A DNA stretch of 7,049 nt from Acaryochloris thomasi RCC1774. Its GTDB lineage: Bacteria > Cyanobacteriota > Cyanobacteriia > Thermosynechococcales > Thermosynechococcaceae. Shown here one piece after another: positions 2 to 7,038 of the stretch. Numbering within the stretch: the stretch's first letter is position 1; the number at the start of each line of letters is the position of its first letter. The translations under genes and the position numbers were made by a program. Location: contig NZ_PQWO01000051.1 of the NCBI RefSeq assembly GCF_003231495.1, forward strand, positions 1-7,049, in the 5' to 3' direction. The notes beneath the pieces were generated by a model. It had not been told where the DNA came from and did not search any database. It worked only from the letters and a program-made list of their open reading frames with translations.

Positions 2-24
2 GGCACTGTCCAGCTAAGAAGTGA
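2..24. repeat. Terminal inverted repeat of the IS1-family element (transposase-distal end)
   Basis: Pairs with the reverse complement of 1047-1069 at 16/23 positions, including the identical terminal heptamer GGCACTG. Confidence 0.6.
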
Positions 25-658
25 CGCATCTAAAACTTCTGACCACCAATATCTCAGCAATTTCAACTGGCCGCTGGATGAATCCCAACACCATCGCAGG
101 GGTGCGCTTGTGTCGGTGGCCCCAGTGAGGACGGCACCAATTGTGGATCAATCTCTGTACGTTCAATGCTCTCTGTAGTCCCTCAACCTTTTTGGCATAG
201 TGATTCTGGCGTCGGCGATAGCCACTTGCCCGTCGTCTCAAGGAACTGTTGAGTGCTTCATTGTGATTTGCATGGACCTCGCTCTTGGGGCTAATGGCCG
301 TGTAAGGATGCTCTCGATTCACCCACTCTACCCGAGGTTTTCCCTGAGAGCCTTTGATTTTCATTGCCACCTCTAATCCCGCTCGCCACACTTTTCGGAA
401 AGGGTACGCCTGTGTCGTTGCACTCCCTGGCAGGTAGACACTCGCTAGCTTCCACAACTCGTTTGAGTATCGACGTTCTCCATCGGTAAACCAACGAATC
501 GATAAACTCGGTTTAGCCCAATCCCAAGCGGCTTTGACACTCTCTTCAAATAACGCCCCATTCTTGAGACCGGCGCGGGCCTCTAACCAATAGCGACTGT
601 CACGTTCGATGAAATGAATCGTCCAGCCTTCACTGAGCCAGGGGGGGATAATTCTCAC
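14..658 (-). CDS. IS1-family transposase, C-terminal (DDE catalytic) part, +1 frame relative to the upstream part
   Basis: The translation continues the DDE domain: ...PPWLSEGWTIHFIERDSRYW..., WFTDGERRYSNELW, HANHNEALNSSLRRRASGYRRRQNHYAKKVEGLQRALNVQRLIHNW. The last segment resembles the IS1 InsB [21 protein letters not shown]...HYLN region. Removing one C from the coding-strand C7 run (641-647) would fuse it to the 630-1010 frame as ...GENYPPWLSEGW.... Confidence 0.8.
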   Translation of the reverse strand: MRIIPPWLSEGWTIHFIERDSRYWLEARAGLKNGALFEESVKAAWDWAKPSLSIRWFTDGERRYSNELWKLASVYLPGSATTQAYPFRKVWRAGLEVAMKIKGSQGKPRVEWVNREHPYTAISPKSEVHANHNEALNSSLRRRASGYRRRQNHYAKKVEGLQRALNVQRLIHNWCRPHWGHRHKRTPAMVLGFIQRPVEIAEILVVRSFRCVTS

Positions 659-1010
659 CTACGCGAGTGTACACTTCATCACCTTCAATCGTGATATCTG
701 ACTCCTCTGAAGAAGGGGGTGACCAGCTTGATAATTGAGCCGATAAACGCTCTTCCCAGCGGATGATACTGCTGGGGGATTTCCCTAGCACTCTCCCGGC
801 GGCTCTAATACCAAGCCCTTCGGTGCGGGCATTGATGGCCATCGATATTGTCTCGACTGGGGTTCTCAGTCTCGCCATCGGTGTCCCACTGCGCTCGTTA
901 AAGCGACGACCGCAATCTGTACAGAGGAAGTACTGAACCACCTGAGCTGTTTTCAAAGTCTTGGTCCCGTTCTTGACCACATTCTCGTGATGACAATAGA
1001 TGCACTGCAT
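630..1010 (-). CDS. IS1-family transposase, N-terminal part (InsA-like zinc finger + HTH, running into the first DDE motif); frame ends at a C7 run
   Basis: The translation MQCIYCHHENVVKNGT...LCTDCGRRF is a CxxC-x(n)-CxxC zinc ribbon, followed by an HTH-like helix region and IEGDEVYTRVGEN. I place the start at the ATG at 1010-1008 because it sits just before the zinc finger. The ORF track extends to a TTG at 1046, which follows an AAGGAG only 3 nt upstream, so that start is possible but less likely. The frame terminates at 630-632 just after the homopolymer. Confidence 0.75.
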   Translation of the reverse strand: MQCIYCHHENVVKNGTKTLKTAQVVQYFLCTDCGRRFNERSGTPMARLRTPVETISMAINARTEGLGIRAAGRVLGKSPSSIIRWEERLSAQLSSWSPPSSEESDITIEGDEVYTRVGENYPPLAQ

Positions 1011-1046
1011 TAGCCTGAAACTTATACTGAAATTACATTCTAGCAA

Positions 1047-1069
1047 TCACTCCTTAAGGAAGCAGTGCC
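1047..1069. repeat. Terminal inverted repeat of the IS1-family element (transposase-proximal end)
   Basis: The reverse complement GGCACTGCTTCCTTAAGGAGTGA matches 2-24. The DUF29 homology resumes immediately outside it, at about 1070. Confidence 0.6.
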
Positions 1070-1341
1070 TAATCGAGGAAGTTGAGGATTTGGGCGGGCG
1101 CCATCGAGACCGGGTTGAAAGCTATTTGAGTAATTTGCTCCTGCGCCTGCTTAAGCGCGAGTATCAAGCCGATAAGCGAACCACCAGTTGGGACGTAAGC
1201 ATTAAGACATCAGCCCTAAATATTCGTAAAGAGATTAAGCGCCATCCCTCATTACGTCGTCATTGTATTGAAAGCTTTGAAGTGACCTATCAGTATGCAC
1301 GAGAACTAGCGTCGATTGAGTCTCAACTCGACCGACCTTGA
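1070..1341 (+). pseudogene. DUF29-family protein gene, 5'-truncated by the IS1-family insertion
   Basis: The translation from about 1072 is IEEVEDLGGRHRDRVESYLSNLLLRLLKREYQADKRTTSWDVSIKTSALNIRKEIKRHPSLRRHCIESFEVTYQYARELASIESQL. This follows the DUF29 pattern as I recall it (IEEIESLGrsekrel.s.l..Ll.HLLKw.YQp.krsrSW..TI.eqR..I..ll...PSLk..l...)). The roughly 45 N-terminal residues typical of the family are absent. The first 23 codons of the 1000-1341 ORF are antisense IS sequence, not DUF29. Confidence 0.75.
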
Positions 1342-1453: not shown

Positions 1454-3742
1454 TTATAGTGCAGAGATATTGAAGATTTTTTGTAAATGCATTTCAACCA
1501 TTGCTTTTTCTCTGCCAGTCAAATCAGATTGGGTGGCAGTCGATAACCGAAGATAATTCAGGTAAGAAACCCAGTCCTTATCTTGCAACCAGTCTTTACT
1601 CGAATTATTGCTATTAATGATCCAATATGACCAAACAACCGTGTCAAGAATAATAATTGGCCAGTCTTTTACGTGGTTGTGAATTCGCTTTTGACACTCA
1701 ACTAATCTACGTATATCTCTTTCTATCTCCTGAATATGATAAGTATACTGTTTTGACTCAATATAGTAGTTCAATCGATAAACTACTATTTGCGAAATCA
1801 AGACCGGGTCATTAAAGGCAAGTTTCTCAGCTTTCAAAAGATCAGAAAAGCCATTCTCCGCGTAGGGAAATCTAAAGTCAGGTTCTCTGTTTATATCATC
1901 AGCGCTAAGAAGACAATTAAGTATTAATGTTTGATTACCTCTTTCAAGATAATATCGAGACTCATCTGAATCAATATGCTTTCTTCTTAGATCAATAGCT
2001 CTGTCGATTAACCTTAGGCTTTCTCTCAGGCCGAGAACTGAGTAATTTGTTTTTCTAACACAGATAGACAAAAAGTAGAACCCTTCAGATGGATATACAA
2101 ATGTCATATTCTTAGGAGAAGATGTTAGAGCCAGCTCGCAATATCTTTTCGCCAGCTTCCATTCACCTAAAGTACTTAATACAAATGACAGTGCAAGAAT
2201 TCTTTCGTACTTTGCATCGCTACTCAAATCCTTCTGAGTATTGAATGAATCTAGTATTTCCCACCACTGGACGGACAAAACTTTGGAGTAGTCCTCAATG
2301 AATTTCTTCGCTTCATTTGAATAAAAGTGCAAAGAATAGAGTGATATAGCTTTTTTGCTATGCAGCTCATGTTTCGTATCTGAGCTAACCACTTGTATAT
2401 CGAGGTTGGATTTAGAAGAGGCTGTTACAGCCTGTAGAGATACTCCCAATGTATGATGAGCCTTTTTCCACTCATCTGCTATGTTATCAACTCTTACTTC
2501 CAAGCGATGTCCTAGGTCTTCATTATTTCTAATGAACTTCATTAATCGATGAACGGACAACTGGCTAGGACGATCTGTCGGAATAATAGATCTGCTATGT
2601 GCATCATATTGCTCTGATTTACTTACATCTACTATGGTGGCAGCATTGATCCAAAATTTCCTGATATTTTGAAGCTTCTCAAAATTCTTTTTGAGAAAAT
2701 CATGAACCTCTAATTCTCCCTCTTCCTTTCTCCGTGATGCTTTGTTTGAAGACTCAATAAAATTTGTTACGGTATAAAGATGCTCTTTTAGTTCGTCGGT
2801 TGTGGTGCGCCGATAAAAATCGAGGAAAATCCTCGGATGTCTCAAAGATGACAAAGAAGGTTTCTTTTTAGGATGCTCACTTTCACTCAATCTGTGCATT
2901 GCTTCGCTTCTAGTAACCAAAACTATCTTTATTTGGCGTTGACTCAATACCTGATTCATCTTGTCAATGGTTCCTAGTGCTATCGCATCCAGATAGCACG
3001 AGTTGGAGCTTGACTCATGCCGCCTCAAAGTAATCAGTTTTTTGTATCTTCTCAATACTGGCTCACTAACCTTCTCTTCGTGGGAAAAATTAAAACTTGA
3101 ATCATAGTTTTGGATAAATGATGTAGCATCCTGAAATAACTCATCACTTGTCAAGTTCATTAAGCGCTGTAGAGGAAGTGAGTGCTGCAAAAAAACACCT
3201 AGTAATGTTGAGGAGTGTTCGGTCAAGAACTCCCATGCTTTATTGAACTCACTATCATTTAAGTCTTTACTATTATCTGTTCTTTTAAGTAAGTCTTGAA
3301 ATGTAGAGTTTTCTTGAAGATATTTTAATTCTTTTGCTATTTCATAGTCGGATGATAGTATCTTGGAAAGTTCTTCTTTTGAGAGATTGGAAAGCAAAAA
3401 ATCCCATTCTTTTTCGTAGGATTGTAGTAAAATGCATCTCTTTGATTGATGAAATAAGAAGTGTAATGCATTGTACTGTAAAGCTAAAGCAACGCTATCC
3501 GGTATGTCTTGAAATATTGAAAATTCTTTAGCAGTTTTTTCCCTAAATACATATGCATATATTTCAGAGAAATCAACTGCATAAACATATTCAAAGTGTT
3601 CTTCTTCCCGATCCTCAATTACCTGTGATAATTCCCTTTTTAGTATTCGACAAAGATTCGTGTACTTCTTTATCCCTATTTTGTCAGGTATCTTTATCTC
3701 ACCAGCAAAGTTAGTTTCATAGGAAGTATCATAAGAAAACAT
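1454..3742 (-). CDS. Hypothetical 762-aa protein (operon gene 3); the C-terminal half looks like TPR-like/alpha-solenoid repeats and the N-terminal region is unassigned
   Basis: This is an uninterrupted 2.3 kb ORF in AT-rich DNA, where random stops would be frequent. An SD-like GCAGG sits about 8 nt upstream of the ATG (minus-strand sequence AAAAGCAGGTTTATTATG). Only 15 nt separate it from the upstream gene. Residues ~465-660 contain TPR-like amphipathic segments (for example AKYERILALSFVLSTLGEWKLAKRYCELALTSSP and ESLRLIDRAIDLRRKH). I could not spot a Walker A/P-loop motif. Confidence 0.85.
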   Translation of the reverse strand: MFSYDTSYETNFAGEIKIPDKIGIKKYTNLCRILKRELSQVIEDREEEHFEYVYAVDFSEIYAYVFREKTAKEFSIFQDIPDSVALALQYNALHFLFHQSKRCILLQSYEKEWDFLLSNLSKEELSKILSSDYEIAKELKYLQENSTFQDLLKRTDNSKDLNDSEFNKAWEFLTEHSSTLLGVFLQHSLPLQRLMNLTSDELFQDATSFIQNYDSSFNFSHEEKVSEPVLRRYKKLITLRRHESSSNSCYLDAIALGTIDKMNQVLSQRQIKIVLVTRSEAMHRLSESEHPKKKPSLSSLRHPRIFLDFYRRTTTDELKEHLYTVTNFIESSNKASRRKEEGELEVHDFLKKNFEKLQNIRKFWINAATIVDVSKSEQYDAHSRSIIPTDRPSQLSVHRLMKFIRNNEDLGHRLEVRVDNIADEWKKAHHTLGVSLQAVTASSKSNLDIQVVSSDTKHELHSKKAISLYSLHFYSNEAKKFIEDYSKVLSVQWWEILDSFNTQKDLSSDAKYERILALSFVLSTLGEWKLAKRYCELALTSSPKNMTFVYPSEGFYFLSICVRKTNYSVLGLRESLRLIDRAIDLRRKHIDSDESRYYLERGNQTLILNCLLSADDINREPDFRFPYAENGFSDLLKAEKLAFNDPVLISQIVVYRLNYYIESKQYTYHIQEIERDIRRLVECQKRIHNHVKDWPIIILDTVVWSYWIINSNNSSKDWLQDKDWVSYLNYLRLSTATQSDLTGREKAMVEMHLQKIFNISAL

Positions 3743-3757
3743 AATAAACCTGCTTTT

Positions 3758-4780
3758 CTATACAATTTCATGAAAAAGGCCTAGTTTCTCTGGATCGGTA
3801 ATCGATGCCACTAAGTCTTCACGAATAAATTTTCGAGTGCGTTCGGCCAGAGTGTTTAGGCCTTCTCCTCTAGATTCTCTAAGCTGTTCAAATAGTTCAA
3901 AAACTGTCTGAAAATAGTATATTGACTCCTGGTCCTCTTTTACTAAGACAGCTTCGCAATTATTGAGTGGATTAGTTGATGAAATAGCGATTTCGCGATT
4001 ATGGTAACTTAAGTGTATTGCTGGAGTGGAACCTGAGCAGAGCAATTGAATGAATGGCTTCCAATAGTCTGAATTCATTCTAAAAAAAACATCAGCTATC
4101 GTAGAGATAGAGACAATTCTTACAAACTCTGACATTGTTATAGAGTAATTGTTAGCTATTTCATCTGTAATATTTGTGCCTTTGGATACGTCAATACTAT
4201 TGGCAAAAATAGGGAAGTATATATAGTAATCTTCTGGTTCACACGTGCAGAGACCTAGAAAAATAATTGGAGCATAGTTCTTAAAATGCTCTTTTCTGCT
4301 CAGCTCTAAAAAAAGTTTCTTCACTTTGGGTAAAGGGGCAAAACCGGCGATTGTAGAAAGCAAGATGGCTGTAGTTCTATATTCTTCGTCTAAGCTCAAT
4401 CTATGTAGCTTCTGCTGTAAAAAAATCACTCTGAACTGCTCAATAGATTTTGATGCTCGAAGATAGGCTGCGAGATAAGAAAGCCGTTGAAGAGTTATGC
4501 CTCGATGTGCTGAAGGGGACCATTCACATATAGCTGTTACTGTTGCAGCCTTGAATTCCTCTTGCTTGCGAGGCTCGAGATTCTTGAAAAGATTTTGAAG
4601 CTGTAAAAGTGCTGAACTTCTATGGCTAAGTTCTAGATCATCAAACTTGATACCATCAGGATTAGAAAAGGCTATAAGGAGAGCTGTAGAAAGAGTCTCT
4701 TCTGTATGCGAGTTTATCCATTCTAGATTTGCCTGATCAGCTTCAGTTATTGTGTCTTCCTTTTTTTGTATATCTTGCAT
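3758..4780 (-). CDS. Hypothetical 340-aa protein (operon gene 2), predicted mostly alpha-helical, no recognisable catalytic motif
   Basis: This is an uninterrupted 1 kb ORF, co-directional with its neighbours, 34 nt downstream of gene 1 and 15 nt upstream of gene 3. The sequence is leucine- and helix-former-rich with no motif I recognise. It contains T8 (4082-4089, read on the coding strand) and A7 (4761-4767, read on the coding strand) runs without frame disruption. Confidence 0.8.
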   Translation of the reverse strand: MQDIQKKEDTITEADQANLEWINSHTEETLSTALLIAFSNPDGIKFDDLELSHRSSALLQLQNLFKNLEPRKQEEFKAATVTAICEWSPSAHRGITLQRLSYLAAYLRASKSIEQFRVIFLQQKLHRLSLDEEYRTTAILLSTIAGFAPLPKVKKLFLELSRKEHFKNYAPIIFLGLCTCEPEDYYIYFPIFANSIDVSKGTNITDEIANNYSITMSEFVRIVSISTIADVFFRMNSDYWKPFIQLLCSGSTPAIHLSYHNREIAISSTNPLNNCEAVLVKEDQESIYYFQTVFELFEQLRESRGEGLNTLAERTRKFIREDLVASITDPEKLGLFHEIV

Positions 4781-4814
4781 AATTTCTAAGAAAAGCTTAT
4801 CCTACGTAAATTTA

Positions 4815-5810
4815 CTAATCTCTTCTCAGGTTGTCGAGGACTTCATCTAGCAAAATGCCGAGCTTTATATTGCTTCCTTCTGGAAAATTTATTTCTGTGA
4901 TTTTTTCTTGATTGTGATTGCTGCTTCGTCTTATCCTCCCTAGATTTCGTAATGAGTATTTATTAGAAAAATTTATTTTTGGATGTATAACCTCAGGAGC
5001 ATCAGGCTCACAAGTAGAAAGATTTATGGTTCTACCACAGCCGTCATCCGTCATTACTGAACAATAAACAGAGTCCTTTGTACAATCGCTATCCAAAAAA
5101 GTTGGTGCTTTTAACTCATCTATATTTACTGCTTGAGTTGGGTATTGTATTTCAAGAATACTCTCTCCCGATTGGTAGGCAACAAGACCTAGGCGATCTC
5201 TGACTATGGATCCCAAATCATCGTTTTTTTCAATTGAACTCACCTCCATGATTTCTTGAATAAAGCTTGATTTAGTGATCCAAGCAAACGGACGCCTTGT
5301 CTGCATATAGCTTTCCGCATTATACTTCGTCTCCCAACGCACTAATATGTCTGCAATTTGTTCATCGCTTGGACCCTGATCGTCAAAAATCAAAGTCCCT
5401 TCTTTGATATGATATTTTATGAAACTTTTCCAAGACATAACTCGTGAGACATTAAAATTACTGCTTTTATTTGGGCCATAACTGCATTGACAAAAAAAAG
5501 ATTTTTCATCTAAATCTTTTGTCTTTATTACTTCGTTAAAAATTTTATATGCTTCGATATTTTTTTGAGAAGGGCTCATTTCTTCAAACCTATCTTGGCA
5601 TCTTAGGAATGCCCACTTTTTTGCTAGCTCTTCAAAAAAATCAGATAATGCCTCACCCGGTAAACGATTATTGTCAATATCATGATAAATATTCTTGAGT
5701 GTGAGCCTTCCCTCTATTGATAGATCCATGATTGCTCTCCACTCTTTGATGTAGTCTTTCATTAAAGAACCCCTATTTCTGTGAAAAGTGAATGCTTTTA
5801 GTTGACGCAT
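4815..5810 (-). CDS. Hypothetical 331-aa protein (operon gene 1); possible nuclease-like D...ExK motif; start codon uncertain (alternative ATG at 5762)
   Basis: This is an uninterrupted 1 kb ORF. The ATG at 5810 has no obvious SD. The internal ATG at 5762 (Met17) is preceded by AGGGG about 7 nt upstream and may be the true start. Motifs noted are TLIFDD (aa 139-144) ... ILVRWETK (aa 155-162), and a C-terminal block RDRLGL...KAPTFLD...GCGRTINL...APEVIHP. Confidence 0.8.
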   Translation of the reverse strand: MRQLKAFTFHRNRGSLMKDYIKEWRAIMDLSIEGRLTLKNIYHDIDNNRLPGEALSDFFEELAKKWAFLRCQDRFEEMSPSQKNIEAYKIFNEVIKTKDLDEKSFFCQCSYGPNKSSNFNVSRVMSWKSFIKYHIKEGTLIFDDQGPSDEQIADILVRWETKYNAESYMQTRRPFAWITKSSFIQEIMEVSSIEKNDDLGSIVRDRLGLVAYQSGESILEIQYPTQAVNIDELKAPTFLDSDCTKDSVYCSVMTDDGCGRTINLSTCEPDAPEVIHPKINFSNKYSLRNLGRIRRSSNHNQEKITEINFPEGSNIKLGILLDEVLDNLRRD

Positions 5811-5881
5811 GACTTGAAGTTCAGAATACTTTACGGTTGGCGTTATTGTTTGATTCTTTACTAAGATCTTATGTCTTCTGG

Positions 5882-5899
5882 ACAGGGCTGTTTTAAATT
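5882..5899. repeat. Left terminal inverted repeat (IRL) of the ISAs1-family element
   Basis: Matches the reverse complement of 7032-7049 at 16/18 positions. Confidence 0.8.
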
Positions 5900-5948: not shown

Positions 5949-6512
5949 ATGAGCACCCTTATAGAAGAACTGAAACAAGTCCCTGATTTCCGCAAATCCC
6001 ATGGCAGATCTCACCCGCTGTGGATTCTGCTGCTATTGATAGTCATGGGCATCCTAGCCGGATATCAGGGGTATCGTCCTCTACACACATTTGCCGAAGA
6101 GCATCAACATGCTTTGTGTGAACTATTTGGGCTTAAGCAGTTGAAAGTCCCTTCCCACTCAACGTTTCGGCGCGTGATGATGGGCATTGACTTCCTTGCC
6201 CTCTCTCACCAATTCGAAGCATGGATGCTATCGCAGCAACAGACTCACTCACCAGATAATCATATTGCCTCCATTGACGGTAAACGTATTCGTCAGCGTC
6301 TTACTGATGAGAACGGTAAGCAGCGCTTTGTCGGATTGGTTAGTCTATATGCCGTCGAAGCGGGCATCACGCTCAAGCTTGAGGCACTCACTCAGCAGGA
6401 CAATAGCGAGATTAAGGTGGTTCAGACTCTGTTAGAAACGCTGCAGGTAGAGGGATTGCTACTCACGATGGATGCCTTACACGCACAAAAAAACGCTTCA
6501 ACAAATCCTTGA
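5949..6512 (+). CDS. ISAs1-family transposase, N-terminal part (DDE_Tnp_1-associated domain plus the first half of the DDE domain); frame lost at an A7 run
   Basis: Family motifs are as listed for the element. The frame reads ...TMDALHAQKNASTNP* after the A7 run at 6487-6493. Confidence 0.85.
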   Translation: MSTLIEELKQVPDFRKSHGRSHPLWILLLLIVMGILAGYQGYRPLHTFAEEHQHALCELFGLKQLKVPSHSTFRRVMMGIDFLALSHQFEAWMLSQQQTHSPDNHIASIDGKRIRQRLTDENGKQRFVGLVSLYAVEAGITLKLEALTQQDNSEIKVVQTLLETLQVEGLLLTMDALHAQKNASTNP

Positions 6513-7038
6513 TTCAGACAATGACTATTTAGTGGCAGTCAAAAGTAATCAGGGTCGTCTTTACCAGCACCTACAGACCTATACTCAATACCTCAAGCCG
6601 ATAGCTGAGCACACCCATCGCCAACACCAGAGAGGGCGAAACGAACATCGTTGCATCAAGGTCTATCGTCCAGTGGGTTTAGCGTTAGAAGAGTGGGAGG
6701 CGATTGAGTCTGTACTCTGTGTCGAGCGATGGGGCACTCGTAAAGGCAAGGACTATCACCACAGGGCCTATTACATCAGTTCGGTATTGACCTCACCTCA
6801 ACAGTGGCAATCGCTAGTCCGCGAGCATTGGGGAATAGAGAACCGGTTGCATTGGCCAAAGGATGTTGTCTTTGGCGAAGATGATTATCGACTTGAAGAT
6901 GAACAAGCACTACTCAATTGGTCGTTGCTCAGAACAATTGTGATTAATCTGCTGAGATTGAATGGCTTCCAATCGCTCAAAGCCGCTATGACAAAGCTTG
7001 CTAATCGGGTTGATGTTATTTTTTCGCTGTTAACTTAA
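6472..7038 (+). CDS. ISAs1-family transposase, C-terminal part (+1 frame relative to the N-terminal part)
   Basis: From the A-run onward the translation reads ...KKTLQQILDSDNDYLVAVKSNQGRLY...REHWGIENRLHWPKDVVFGEDDYRLEDEQALLNWSLLRTIVINLLR, a typical IS4/ISAs1-type C-terminal DDE region. Deleting one A from A7 gives the continuous sequence DALHAQKTLQQIL. The ATG at 6472 is probably not a genuine start. Confidence 0.85.
   Translation: MPYTHKKTLQQILDSDNDYLVAVKSNQGRLYQHLQTYTQYLKPIAEHTHRQHQRGRNEHRCIKVYRPVGLALEEWEAIESVLCVERWGTRKGKDYHHRAYYISSVLTSPQQWQSLVREHWGIENRLHWPKDVVFGEDDYRLEDEQALLNWSLLRTIVINLLRLNGFQSLKAAMTKLANRVDVIFSLLT

Follow-up and report, generated by a model that had tools for sequence, protein, structure and literature searches.

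The 7,049-bp contig NZ_PQWO01000051.1 of the cyanobacterium Acaryochloris thomasi RCC1774, which makes up the entire window analysed here and belongs to a genome of 5.93 Mb, carries three consecutive open reading frames (ORFs) on its minus strand, referred to below as genes A, B and C. The last of these, gene C, encodes a protein of 762 residues whose N-terminal region (residues ~47-313) is most likely, as judged from structural models, a PIN-like domain of VapC-like structure, in which a helical bundle placed behind strand 2 adds to the size, and whose C-terminal part has the predicted fold of a tetratricopeptide repeat (TPR)-like solenoid. The three genes form a cassette that is horizontally acquired, as attested by its foreign base composition, by the insertion sequences on both of its sides and by its patchy distribution. 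We consider it fairly probable that this cassette represents a mobile module of conflict or defence, in which gene C provides a nuclease effector that combines PIN and TPR elements.

The protein encoded by gene C belongs to a sizeable family. An exhaustive profile search recovered 558 representatives at E-values of at most 1e-3 (156 at 1e-30 or below), nearly all of them aligned from end to end and 700-800 residues in length; a word-indexed search returned just four relatives, with identities of 26-43%. The few homologues that bear a name are all labelled 'hypothetical protein', and gene C itself finds nothing above threshold in Pfam, NCBIfam, PADLOC or PHROGs; in PADLOC-DB 2.0.0, none of the three genes matches any model at E<=1. 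A preliminary description of this DNA had picked out the reading frame of gene C and two segments of its N-terminal region, in which a loose PIN-like signature was perceived; the frame does encode 762 residues, and both segments are present and represent the best-conserved parts of the family.

Structural modelling and fold comparison carry the assignment of the N-terminal region. A full-length model of the protein, built from five sequences, was mediocre, with a predicted local distance difference test score (pLDDT) of 63; residues 24-340, modelled with AlphaFold2 from an alignment with 16 homologous N-terminal regions, yielded a pLDDT of 84.5 and a predicted template modelling score (pTM) of 0.79. 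In this domain model, strand 51-56 is followed by helices, by strand 103-105, by a long helical stretch and by strand 203-205, after which come further helices, helix 246-269, strand 271-276, another helix, a short strand at ~299-301 and finally helix 315-339, which is the first helix of the linker and is here modelled with confidence. When the model was compared by VIA-align with 48,161 PDB chains, PIN domains or PIN-fold proteins occupied 25 of the top 26 rows (Z 8.7-6.2), the best match being VapC15 (4chg_A; Z 8.7, root-mean-square deviation (rmsd) 3.2, 127/133 residues), accompanied by AF1683 (Z 8.6), VapC11, VapC21, FitB, Rrp44, Nmd4, SMG6/EST1A, SMG5 and Nob1; these matches cover model residues 28-290. 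In a second pass over Foldseek candidates, the top 21 rows were all PIN domains or PIN-fold proteins (Z 9.0-6.0), led by the PIN domain of Rrp44 and by VapC11 (Z 9.0 each), with VapC2, RohQ, FitB, HARP, PAE2754 and PRORP next. The structural alignments with PIN proteins span 127-137 residues, with rmsd values of 3.1-3.6, and the remaining rows of the fold search match the helical bundle alone (model residues 97-177). The expectation of a PIN-like Rossmannoid core is thereby borne out, the match of the 24-340 model being specific to PIN domains. The two conserved aspartates of the region, D57 and D252, lie 195 residues apart, as compared to roughly 85-90 in small VapC proteins; in the model the extra length is made up of the helical bundle after strand 2 and helices after strand 3.

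A number of results speak against this interpretation and have to be weighed with it. Z values of 8-9 barely exceed the level that VIA-align itself calls common for unmatched models, and Foldseek alone, run on the N-terminal model, gave no significant match (E ~1), its viral library offering a 'PIN like domain' row at a probability of 0.47 only. In addition, gene C showed no match to a PIN model of Pfam or NCBIfam at E<=1, a PDB profile search with gene C displayed only spectrin and kinesin light chain (KLC) noise, and hhalign comparison of the N-terminal alignment with 12 VapC PIN domains of the same genome gave E-values of 0.5-0.9, whether the insert was kept or removed. The Z level, the Foldseek result and the lack of sequence-profile support would be accounted for if the region were a generic Rossmann-like alpha/beta domain whose resemblance to PIN proteins reflects a common arrangement and is an artefact of the predicted model. 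We hold this explanation to be decidedly improbable, in that all top rows except one are PIN or PIN-fold proteins matched over nearly the whole of their chains, that other alpha/beta folds score more than 4 Z units lower (4.7 at most in the second pass), and that invariant residues of the family occupy PIN catalytic positions, an observation that is independent of the fold search. The PIN assignment thus relies on the fold match and on the positions of the invariant residues.

The conservation of these residues was followed through 119 full-length homologues, with 17-44% identity to gene C. No columns other than D57, E60 and D252 (119/119 each) are invariant, and E112 is retained in 118; the vicinity of the two aspartates is also well preserved, with Ser or Thr at position 59 in 107 sequences and A255 in 109. 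D57 ends up immediately after strand 1, and D252 within the opening turns of helix 246-269. Where strand 4 ends, position 277 is Thr or Ser in 116 of the 119, R278 is present in 114, S279 in 116 (with Asp in 2), and M282, which stands at the place of the Asp in VapC proteins of the 'TRNxxDF' kind, in 95. The RHPR motif, formed by R301 (101/119), H302 (99/119), P303 (110/119) and R304 (106/119), follows strand 5. The preliminary description had named D57, D252 and E280 as the acids of a possible site, with Thr277 nearby; both aspartates and the threonine stand up to this comparison, but position 280 is Glu in just 20 of the 119 homologues, and E280 has been dropped from the putative site for that reason. 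The conserved triplet in its neighbourhood is T277-R278-S279, and E60 and E112 are conserved acids that had escaped the earlier reading.

In PIN-like domains the site is made up of an Asp following strand 1, an acid at the N-terminal end of helix 4, an acid after strand 4, which is 'almost always invariant' in the superfamily, and usually another after strand 2, which in VapC-like members is carried by the H2' insert, and at least four acids are needed for activity (PMC5499597). Gene C possesses the Asp right after strand 1 (D57), the acid at the N-terminus of helix 4 (D252) and the acid after strand 2 (E112, which stands where VapC-type proteins have their catalytic Glu), and its conserved acids total four once E60 is included. 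The offsets of the fold alignments place D57 on what we take to be the first catalytic Asp of several VapC proteins. As read from the alignment and the model, the probable active site is formed by D57, E60, E112 and D252, supported by T277, R278, S279 and the RHPR motif; within it, E60 is a candidate for participation in the metal site. The family members with Asp at position 279 (P0127, P0148, L005 and L018) all lack a complete RHPR motif (4/4, a very small sample), and this may reflect covariation, or compensation, within the active site.

An objection to catalysis is that Ser279 takes the place of the acid after strand 4. This substitution evokes another explanation, namely that the PIN-like fold is real but that the protein is not a nuclease, being either a binding-only pseudo-nuclease or an enzyme that uses the PIN scaffold for a different reaction, RohQ, a cyclodehydratase, being an example. 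SMG5 and Nmd4 are described as binding-only pseudo-nucleases, and both of them, as well as RohQ, are found among the fold matches. The serine is present in 116 of 119 homologues, at a position where the acid is almost always invariant in the superfamily (PMC5499597). Nevertheless, D57, E60, E112 and D252 are invariant or nearly so among sequences that have diverged to 17-44% identity, as metal sites typically are and as would not be expected for mere binding, and four acids reach the minimum cited for activity (PMC5499597). A protein devoid of nuclease activity therefore appears unlikely, though with a weight that deserves to be kept in mind, and a metal-dependent nuclease is the reading that we retain.

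For the C-terminal region, Foldseek on the full-length model of gene C identified TPR proteins only. The compact top matches of residues ~476-761 are PilF, KLC1, LGN and designed CTPR proteins (probability 1.0), with target-normalised template modelling scores of 0.45-0.56 and E-values of 4e-3 to 1.7e-2. In sequence comparisons, no TPR model of Pfam exceeded its cut-off (the best, Fis1_TPR_C, reached 16.9 bits versus 25.3), and the match to the TPR profile of KLC1 in the PDB profile search was weak (E 0.2-0.9). The TPR-like solenoid is thus supported by its modelled fold; helical repeats of this type had been anticipated at residues 465-660, and their nature agrees with the fold match, but their extent has to be corrected to ~476-761. 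Charged residues conserved in at least 90% of the homologues in this region are E513, E553, R563, R596 and E600, a pattern that would suit the recognition of a constant partner rather than that of a variable ligand.

Comparison with known systems indicates where the family of gene C may be placed. It shares with the PIN superfamily, and with VapC proteins in particular (PMC5499597), the core fold, the Asp that follows strand 1, the Glu in the helical element that follows strand 2, the Asp at the start of helix 4 and the Thr or Ser at the end of strand 4, and its LVTRS motif is comparable to LVTRN in several VapC proteins of the same genome. Its structural neighbours include VapC15, VapC11 and VapC21 of M. 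tuberculosis, FitB, AF1683 and the PIN domain of Rrp44. It differs from VapC-type PIN proteins in that there is no detectable sequence similarity, in the addition of a helical bundle of ~80 residues, in the Ser that stands for the acid after strand 4, in the extra invariant E60 and in the RHPR motif. In VapBC modules, a toxin of 130-150 residues is preceded by a small DNA-binding antitoxin, whereas gene C has 762 residues and lies downstream of a helical protein of 340 residues; gene C as a member of VapBC is ruled out by size, partner and sequence. DUF4935 proteins (PF16289) are described as possessing a long helical insert after strand 2 and two helices after strand 3, both of which are encountered in gene C, and share with it the structural neighbours 1w8i and 1y82; however, they measure ~350 residues and are mono-cistronic, whereas gene C is a 762-residue member of a cassette, and the PF16289 model does not match gene C or 17 homologous N-terminal domains at E<=1.

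The association of TPR and PIN elements has precedents. Kaur, Iyer, Burroughs and Aravind (2021; PMC8195603) described proteins composed of a variable N-terminal effector, a TPR region, a GreA/B-C domain and a C-terminal PIN domain; these systems, found in cyanobacteria, unite a TPR array and a divergent PIN domain in a protein predicted to counter invaders, and thus contain the same ingredients as gene C. One could consequently imagine that gene C is a rearranged member of that family, with which it shares the TPR region, the hard-to-detect PIN domain and, as regards the archetype, a cyanobacterial origin (PMC8195603). By description, which is the level at which the two were compared, this origin seems highly improbable: the domains of gene C stand in the opposite order, PIN at the front and TPR at the back, and a variable N-terminal effector is absent; a GreA/B-C domain could not be detected in gene C, whose linker is modelled as helical; and members of the described family are mostly standalone genes, as opposed to the three-gene cassette found here (PMC8195603). 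A separate PIN-TPR family thus remains our preferred reading of gene C. PIN ribonucleases have also been validated as essential defence effectors in DS-3 and DS-5, two systems from DefensePredictor, of which DS-3 has a PIN domain split by a large insertion and DS-5 requires a partner other than an antitoxin (PMC13092281). Here too the likeness is one of description; DS-3 and DS-5 come from E. coli and consist of one and two genes, whereas the present cassette comprises three genes and includes a TPR module.

The second line of evidence comes from genomic context, a subject that the preliminary description had overlooked. Homologues of gene C were retrieved from a single genome of Anaerolineae, from four genomes of Acidobacteriota (including Thermoanaerobaculia and Pyrinomonadaceae) and from 12 metagenome contigs, and the context was read for ~15 of the several hundred homologues. 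Wherever the upstream DNA suffices, the cassette consists of gene A (~300 residues), gene B (~320 residues) and then gene C, an order that is seen in loci L001-L005, L007, L008, L011, L013, L014, L017 and L025; exceptions are L010 and L018, in which A and B are matched only marginally. Stop and start codons of successive genes overlap by 1-11 nucleotides in most loci, and the three genes are probably co-transcribed and translationally coupled. Five genomes carry A, B and C in equal numbers (1, 3, 1, 1 and 1), each copy lying next to its partners; in the genome of A. thomasi each of the three is single-copy. The third copy in the Acidobacteriota genome G402 (L028, G402:C2:4443149-4446923) has decayed, both B and C being truncated, its gene C lacking the strand-1 motif and its gene B matching profile positions 7-180 only, with a gene A of full length. 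In L015, a divergent homologue of gene C (800 residues; positions 4425-5890, plus strand) follows two overlapping ORFs of 231 and 258 residues, which show no similarity to A or B and may represent an alternative set of partners.

Gene A, the first gene of the cassette, probably starts at M17 (nucleotide 5762), 16 codons inside the listed ORF, since homologues and database records begin at this position. Thirteen columns are invariant in 11 sequences, including D44, S122, R204, T237 and E273, and the motifs RPFAW.T, RD.LGL, APT, VYRS, DGWGRT and PEAVH can be recognized; this pattern of conservation suggests an enzyme. No family or solved structure was matched by gene A in Pfam, NCBIfam, PADLOC, PHROGs or PDB profiles, and no longer, fused forms of it were found. 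Several candidate identities were discarded: the match to 6xi1 in the PDB profiles (E 2.8e-6) is an artefact that sums four weak tandem-repeat matches, assignment to HEPN (Rx4-6H) was abandoned for lack of a conserved His, and several ADP-ribosyltransferase families proposed through the ESM Atlas (0.85-0.87) fell below the trust level of the tool and were not adopted. Gene B, the least conserved of the three, matched no family in Pfam, NCBIfam, PADLOC or PHROGs, and no DNA-binding family; assorted DUFs suggested by the ESM Atlas were sub-threshold and were likewise set aside.

In A. thomasi, the three genes have a G+C content of 36.4%, compared to 50.2% for the genome, and only 0.08% of the 4.5-kb windows of this genome are equally low. 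They are bordered on one side by remnants of an IS1-family transposase, in which the N-terminal ORF (630-1046) is followed by a 214-residue ORF without a family match. A 113-residue DUF29 ORF (1000-1341, plus strand) overlaps the IS1 ORF by 47 nucleotides and aligns to profile positions 28-117 of 138 only; given this partial coverage and the overlap, it may have been truncated by the IS1 insertion. Their opposite border is formed by a DDE transposase in two overlapping ORFs (5949-6512 and 6472-7038), which is probably frameshifted or decayed. Scans of the island for promoters, terminators and repeats gave background levels only.

The coordinates of the features discussed are gathered in Table 1.

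Table 1. Features of the window, with the basis on which each was assigned (positions in nucleotides of the contig)
Feature	Position	Strand	Basis
Gene C, 762 residues, PIN-like / linker / TPR-like	1454..3742	-	ORF and translation; family of homologues
PIN-like domain (predicted), residues 47-313	2804..3604	-	AlphaFold2 model and fold searches
Strand 1 motif YAVDFSEI, with D57 and E60	3560..3583	-	Conservation; D57 immediately after strand 51-56
E112, opening the helix after strand 2	3407..3409	-	Glu in 118/119; strand 103-105, helix from 107
Helical bundle inserted after strand 2, residues ~120-200	3143..3385	-	Model helices
LDAIA motif, D252 close to the N-terminal end of the crossover helix	2978..2992	-	D252 119/119, A255 109/119; helix 246-269, followed by strand 271-276
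LVTRS motif, where strand 4 ends; S279 at the place of the usual acid	2906..2920	-	Column counts
RHPR motif after strand 5, family-specific	2831..2842	-	Column counts for R301-R304
Helical linker, residues 314-475	2318..2803	-	pLDDT mostly <50 in full-length model
TPR-like alpha-solenoid (predicted), residues 476-761	1460..2317	-	13 consecutive helices, pLDDT mostly 70-92
Gene B, 340-residue helical protein	3758..4780	-	Directly upstream of gene C in every informative locus
Gene A, 331-residue ORF, enzyme-like conservation	4815..5810	-	Conservation; first gene of the cassette
IS1-family transposase remnants, island boundary	14..1046	-	NCBIfam IS1 transposase, E 7e-13, on ORF 630-1046
DDE transposase in two ORFs, other island boundary	5949..7038	+	Pfam DDE_Tnp_1_assoc, E 3.6e-21; DDE_Tnp_1, E 5.9e-12

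The surroundings of the cassette in other organisms must also be considered. Its flanks vary by locus, and in L008 a Thoeris ThsA-Macro-like gene (8372-9229, plus strand; Pfam E 1.2e-34, PADLOC ThsA E 3.5e-40) lies 140 nucleotides downstream, on the same strand; at other loci, matches to PIN toxin-antitoxin systems, PDC-S01, MADS and AriA-like genes occur within 7 kb. Three further points temper the proposal of a defence module: most neighbours are housekeeping genes or genes of unknown nature, which gives no indication of enrichment in defence islands; searches of phage and plasmid collections gave no match; and neither A nor B shows a recognisable fold or family. The prevalence of housekeeping neighbours, and the occurrence of SMG6/EST1A, Nob1, Utp23 and HARP among the fold matches, would be in line with an accessory complex for RNA processing or regulation, in which a TPR scaffold and a PIN domain are combined as in SMG6/EST1-type proteins or in the RNase P-like HARP. 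Such a role is very improbable for genes that are found in 1 of 401 genomes sampled from the phylum of A. thomasi and in 1 of 401 genomes sampled from that of G402, that are present in three copies, one of them decayed, in a single genome, and that display foreign base composition, insertion-sequence flanks and neighbourhoods specific to each locus. It is because the three genes travel jointly between phyla that are far apart that the cassette is read as a mobile conflict module; it resembles defence and addiction systems in behaving as a mobile unit that is complete in itself.

Within such a module, we infer the activity, the substrate and the trigger of gene C, the roles of its TPR-like region and of genes A and B, and the function in defence as follows. 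The PIN-like pocket of gene C would carry out metal-dependent cleavage of nucleic acid, most likely RNA. The TPR-like array would hold partner proteins or the trigger itself, and would in this manner control the nuclease, so that gene C could be regarded as a fusion of sensor and effector; together with the helical insert, the array may restrain the nuclease through A, through B or through both. The fast-evolving gene B may serve as an adaptor or inhibitor. The module as a whole, with C as its effector, could act in phage defence by abortive infection, or as an addiction system similar to toxin-antitoxin pairs.

A more ambitious proposal, which we put forward as tentative, is that A, B and C represent an undescribed three-component system of immunity or addiction, in which gene C founds a new family of PIN-like proteins whose site departs from the canonical one (D-E-E-D, with Ser and RHPR standing in for the acid after strand 4), gated through its TPR-like region by two partners, and gene A is a new enzyme, possibly a modifier of the ADP-ribosyltransferase type. 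PIN effectors are themselves known; what is new here is the PIN-like family with its altered site, its fusion to a TPR-like region and the three-gene arrangement. The analysis provides a fold and a probable catalytic centre for an unannotated family, none of whose 558 representative clusters bears a family name, and indicates that this family travels with two further unannotated genes. PIN nucleases and TPR scaffolds constitute a recurring design in predicted bacterial immunity, of which gene C, with its changed site and its obligatory partners, would be a separate invention, and should a role in phage defence or addiction prove true, a new type of system would be added to those known. In addition, gene C provides a naturally occurring case for testing the operation of a PIN site that lacks the canonical fourth acid.

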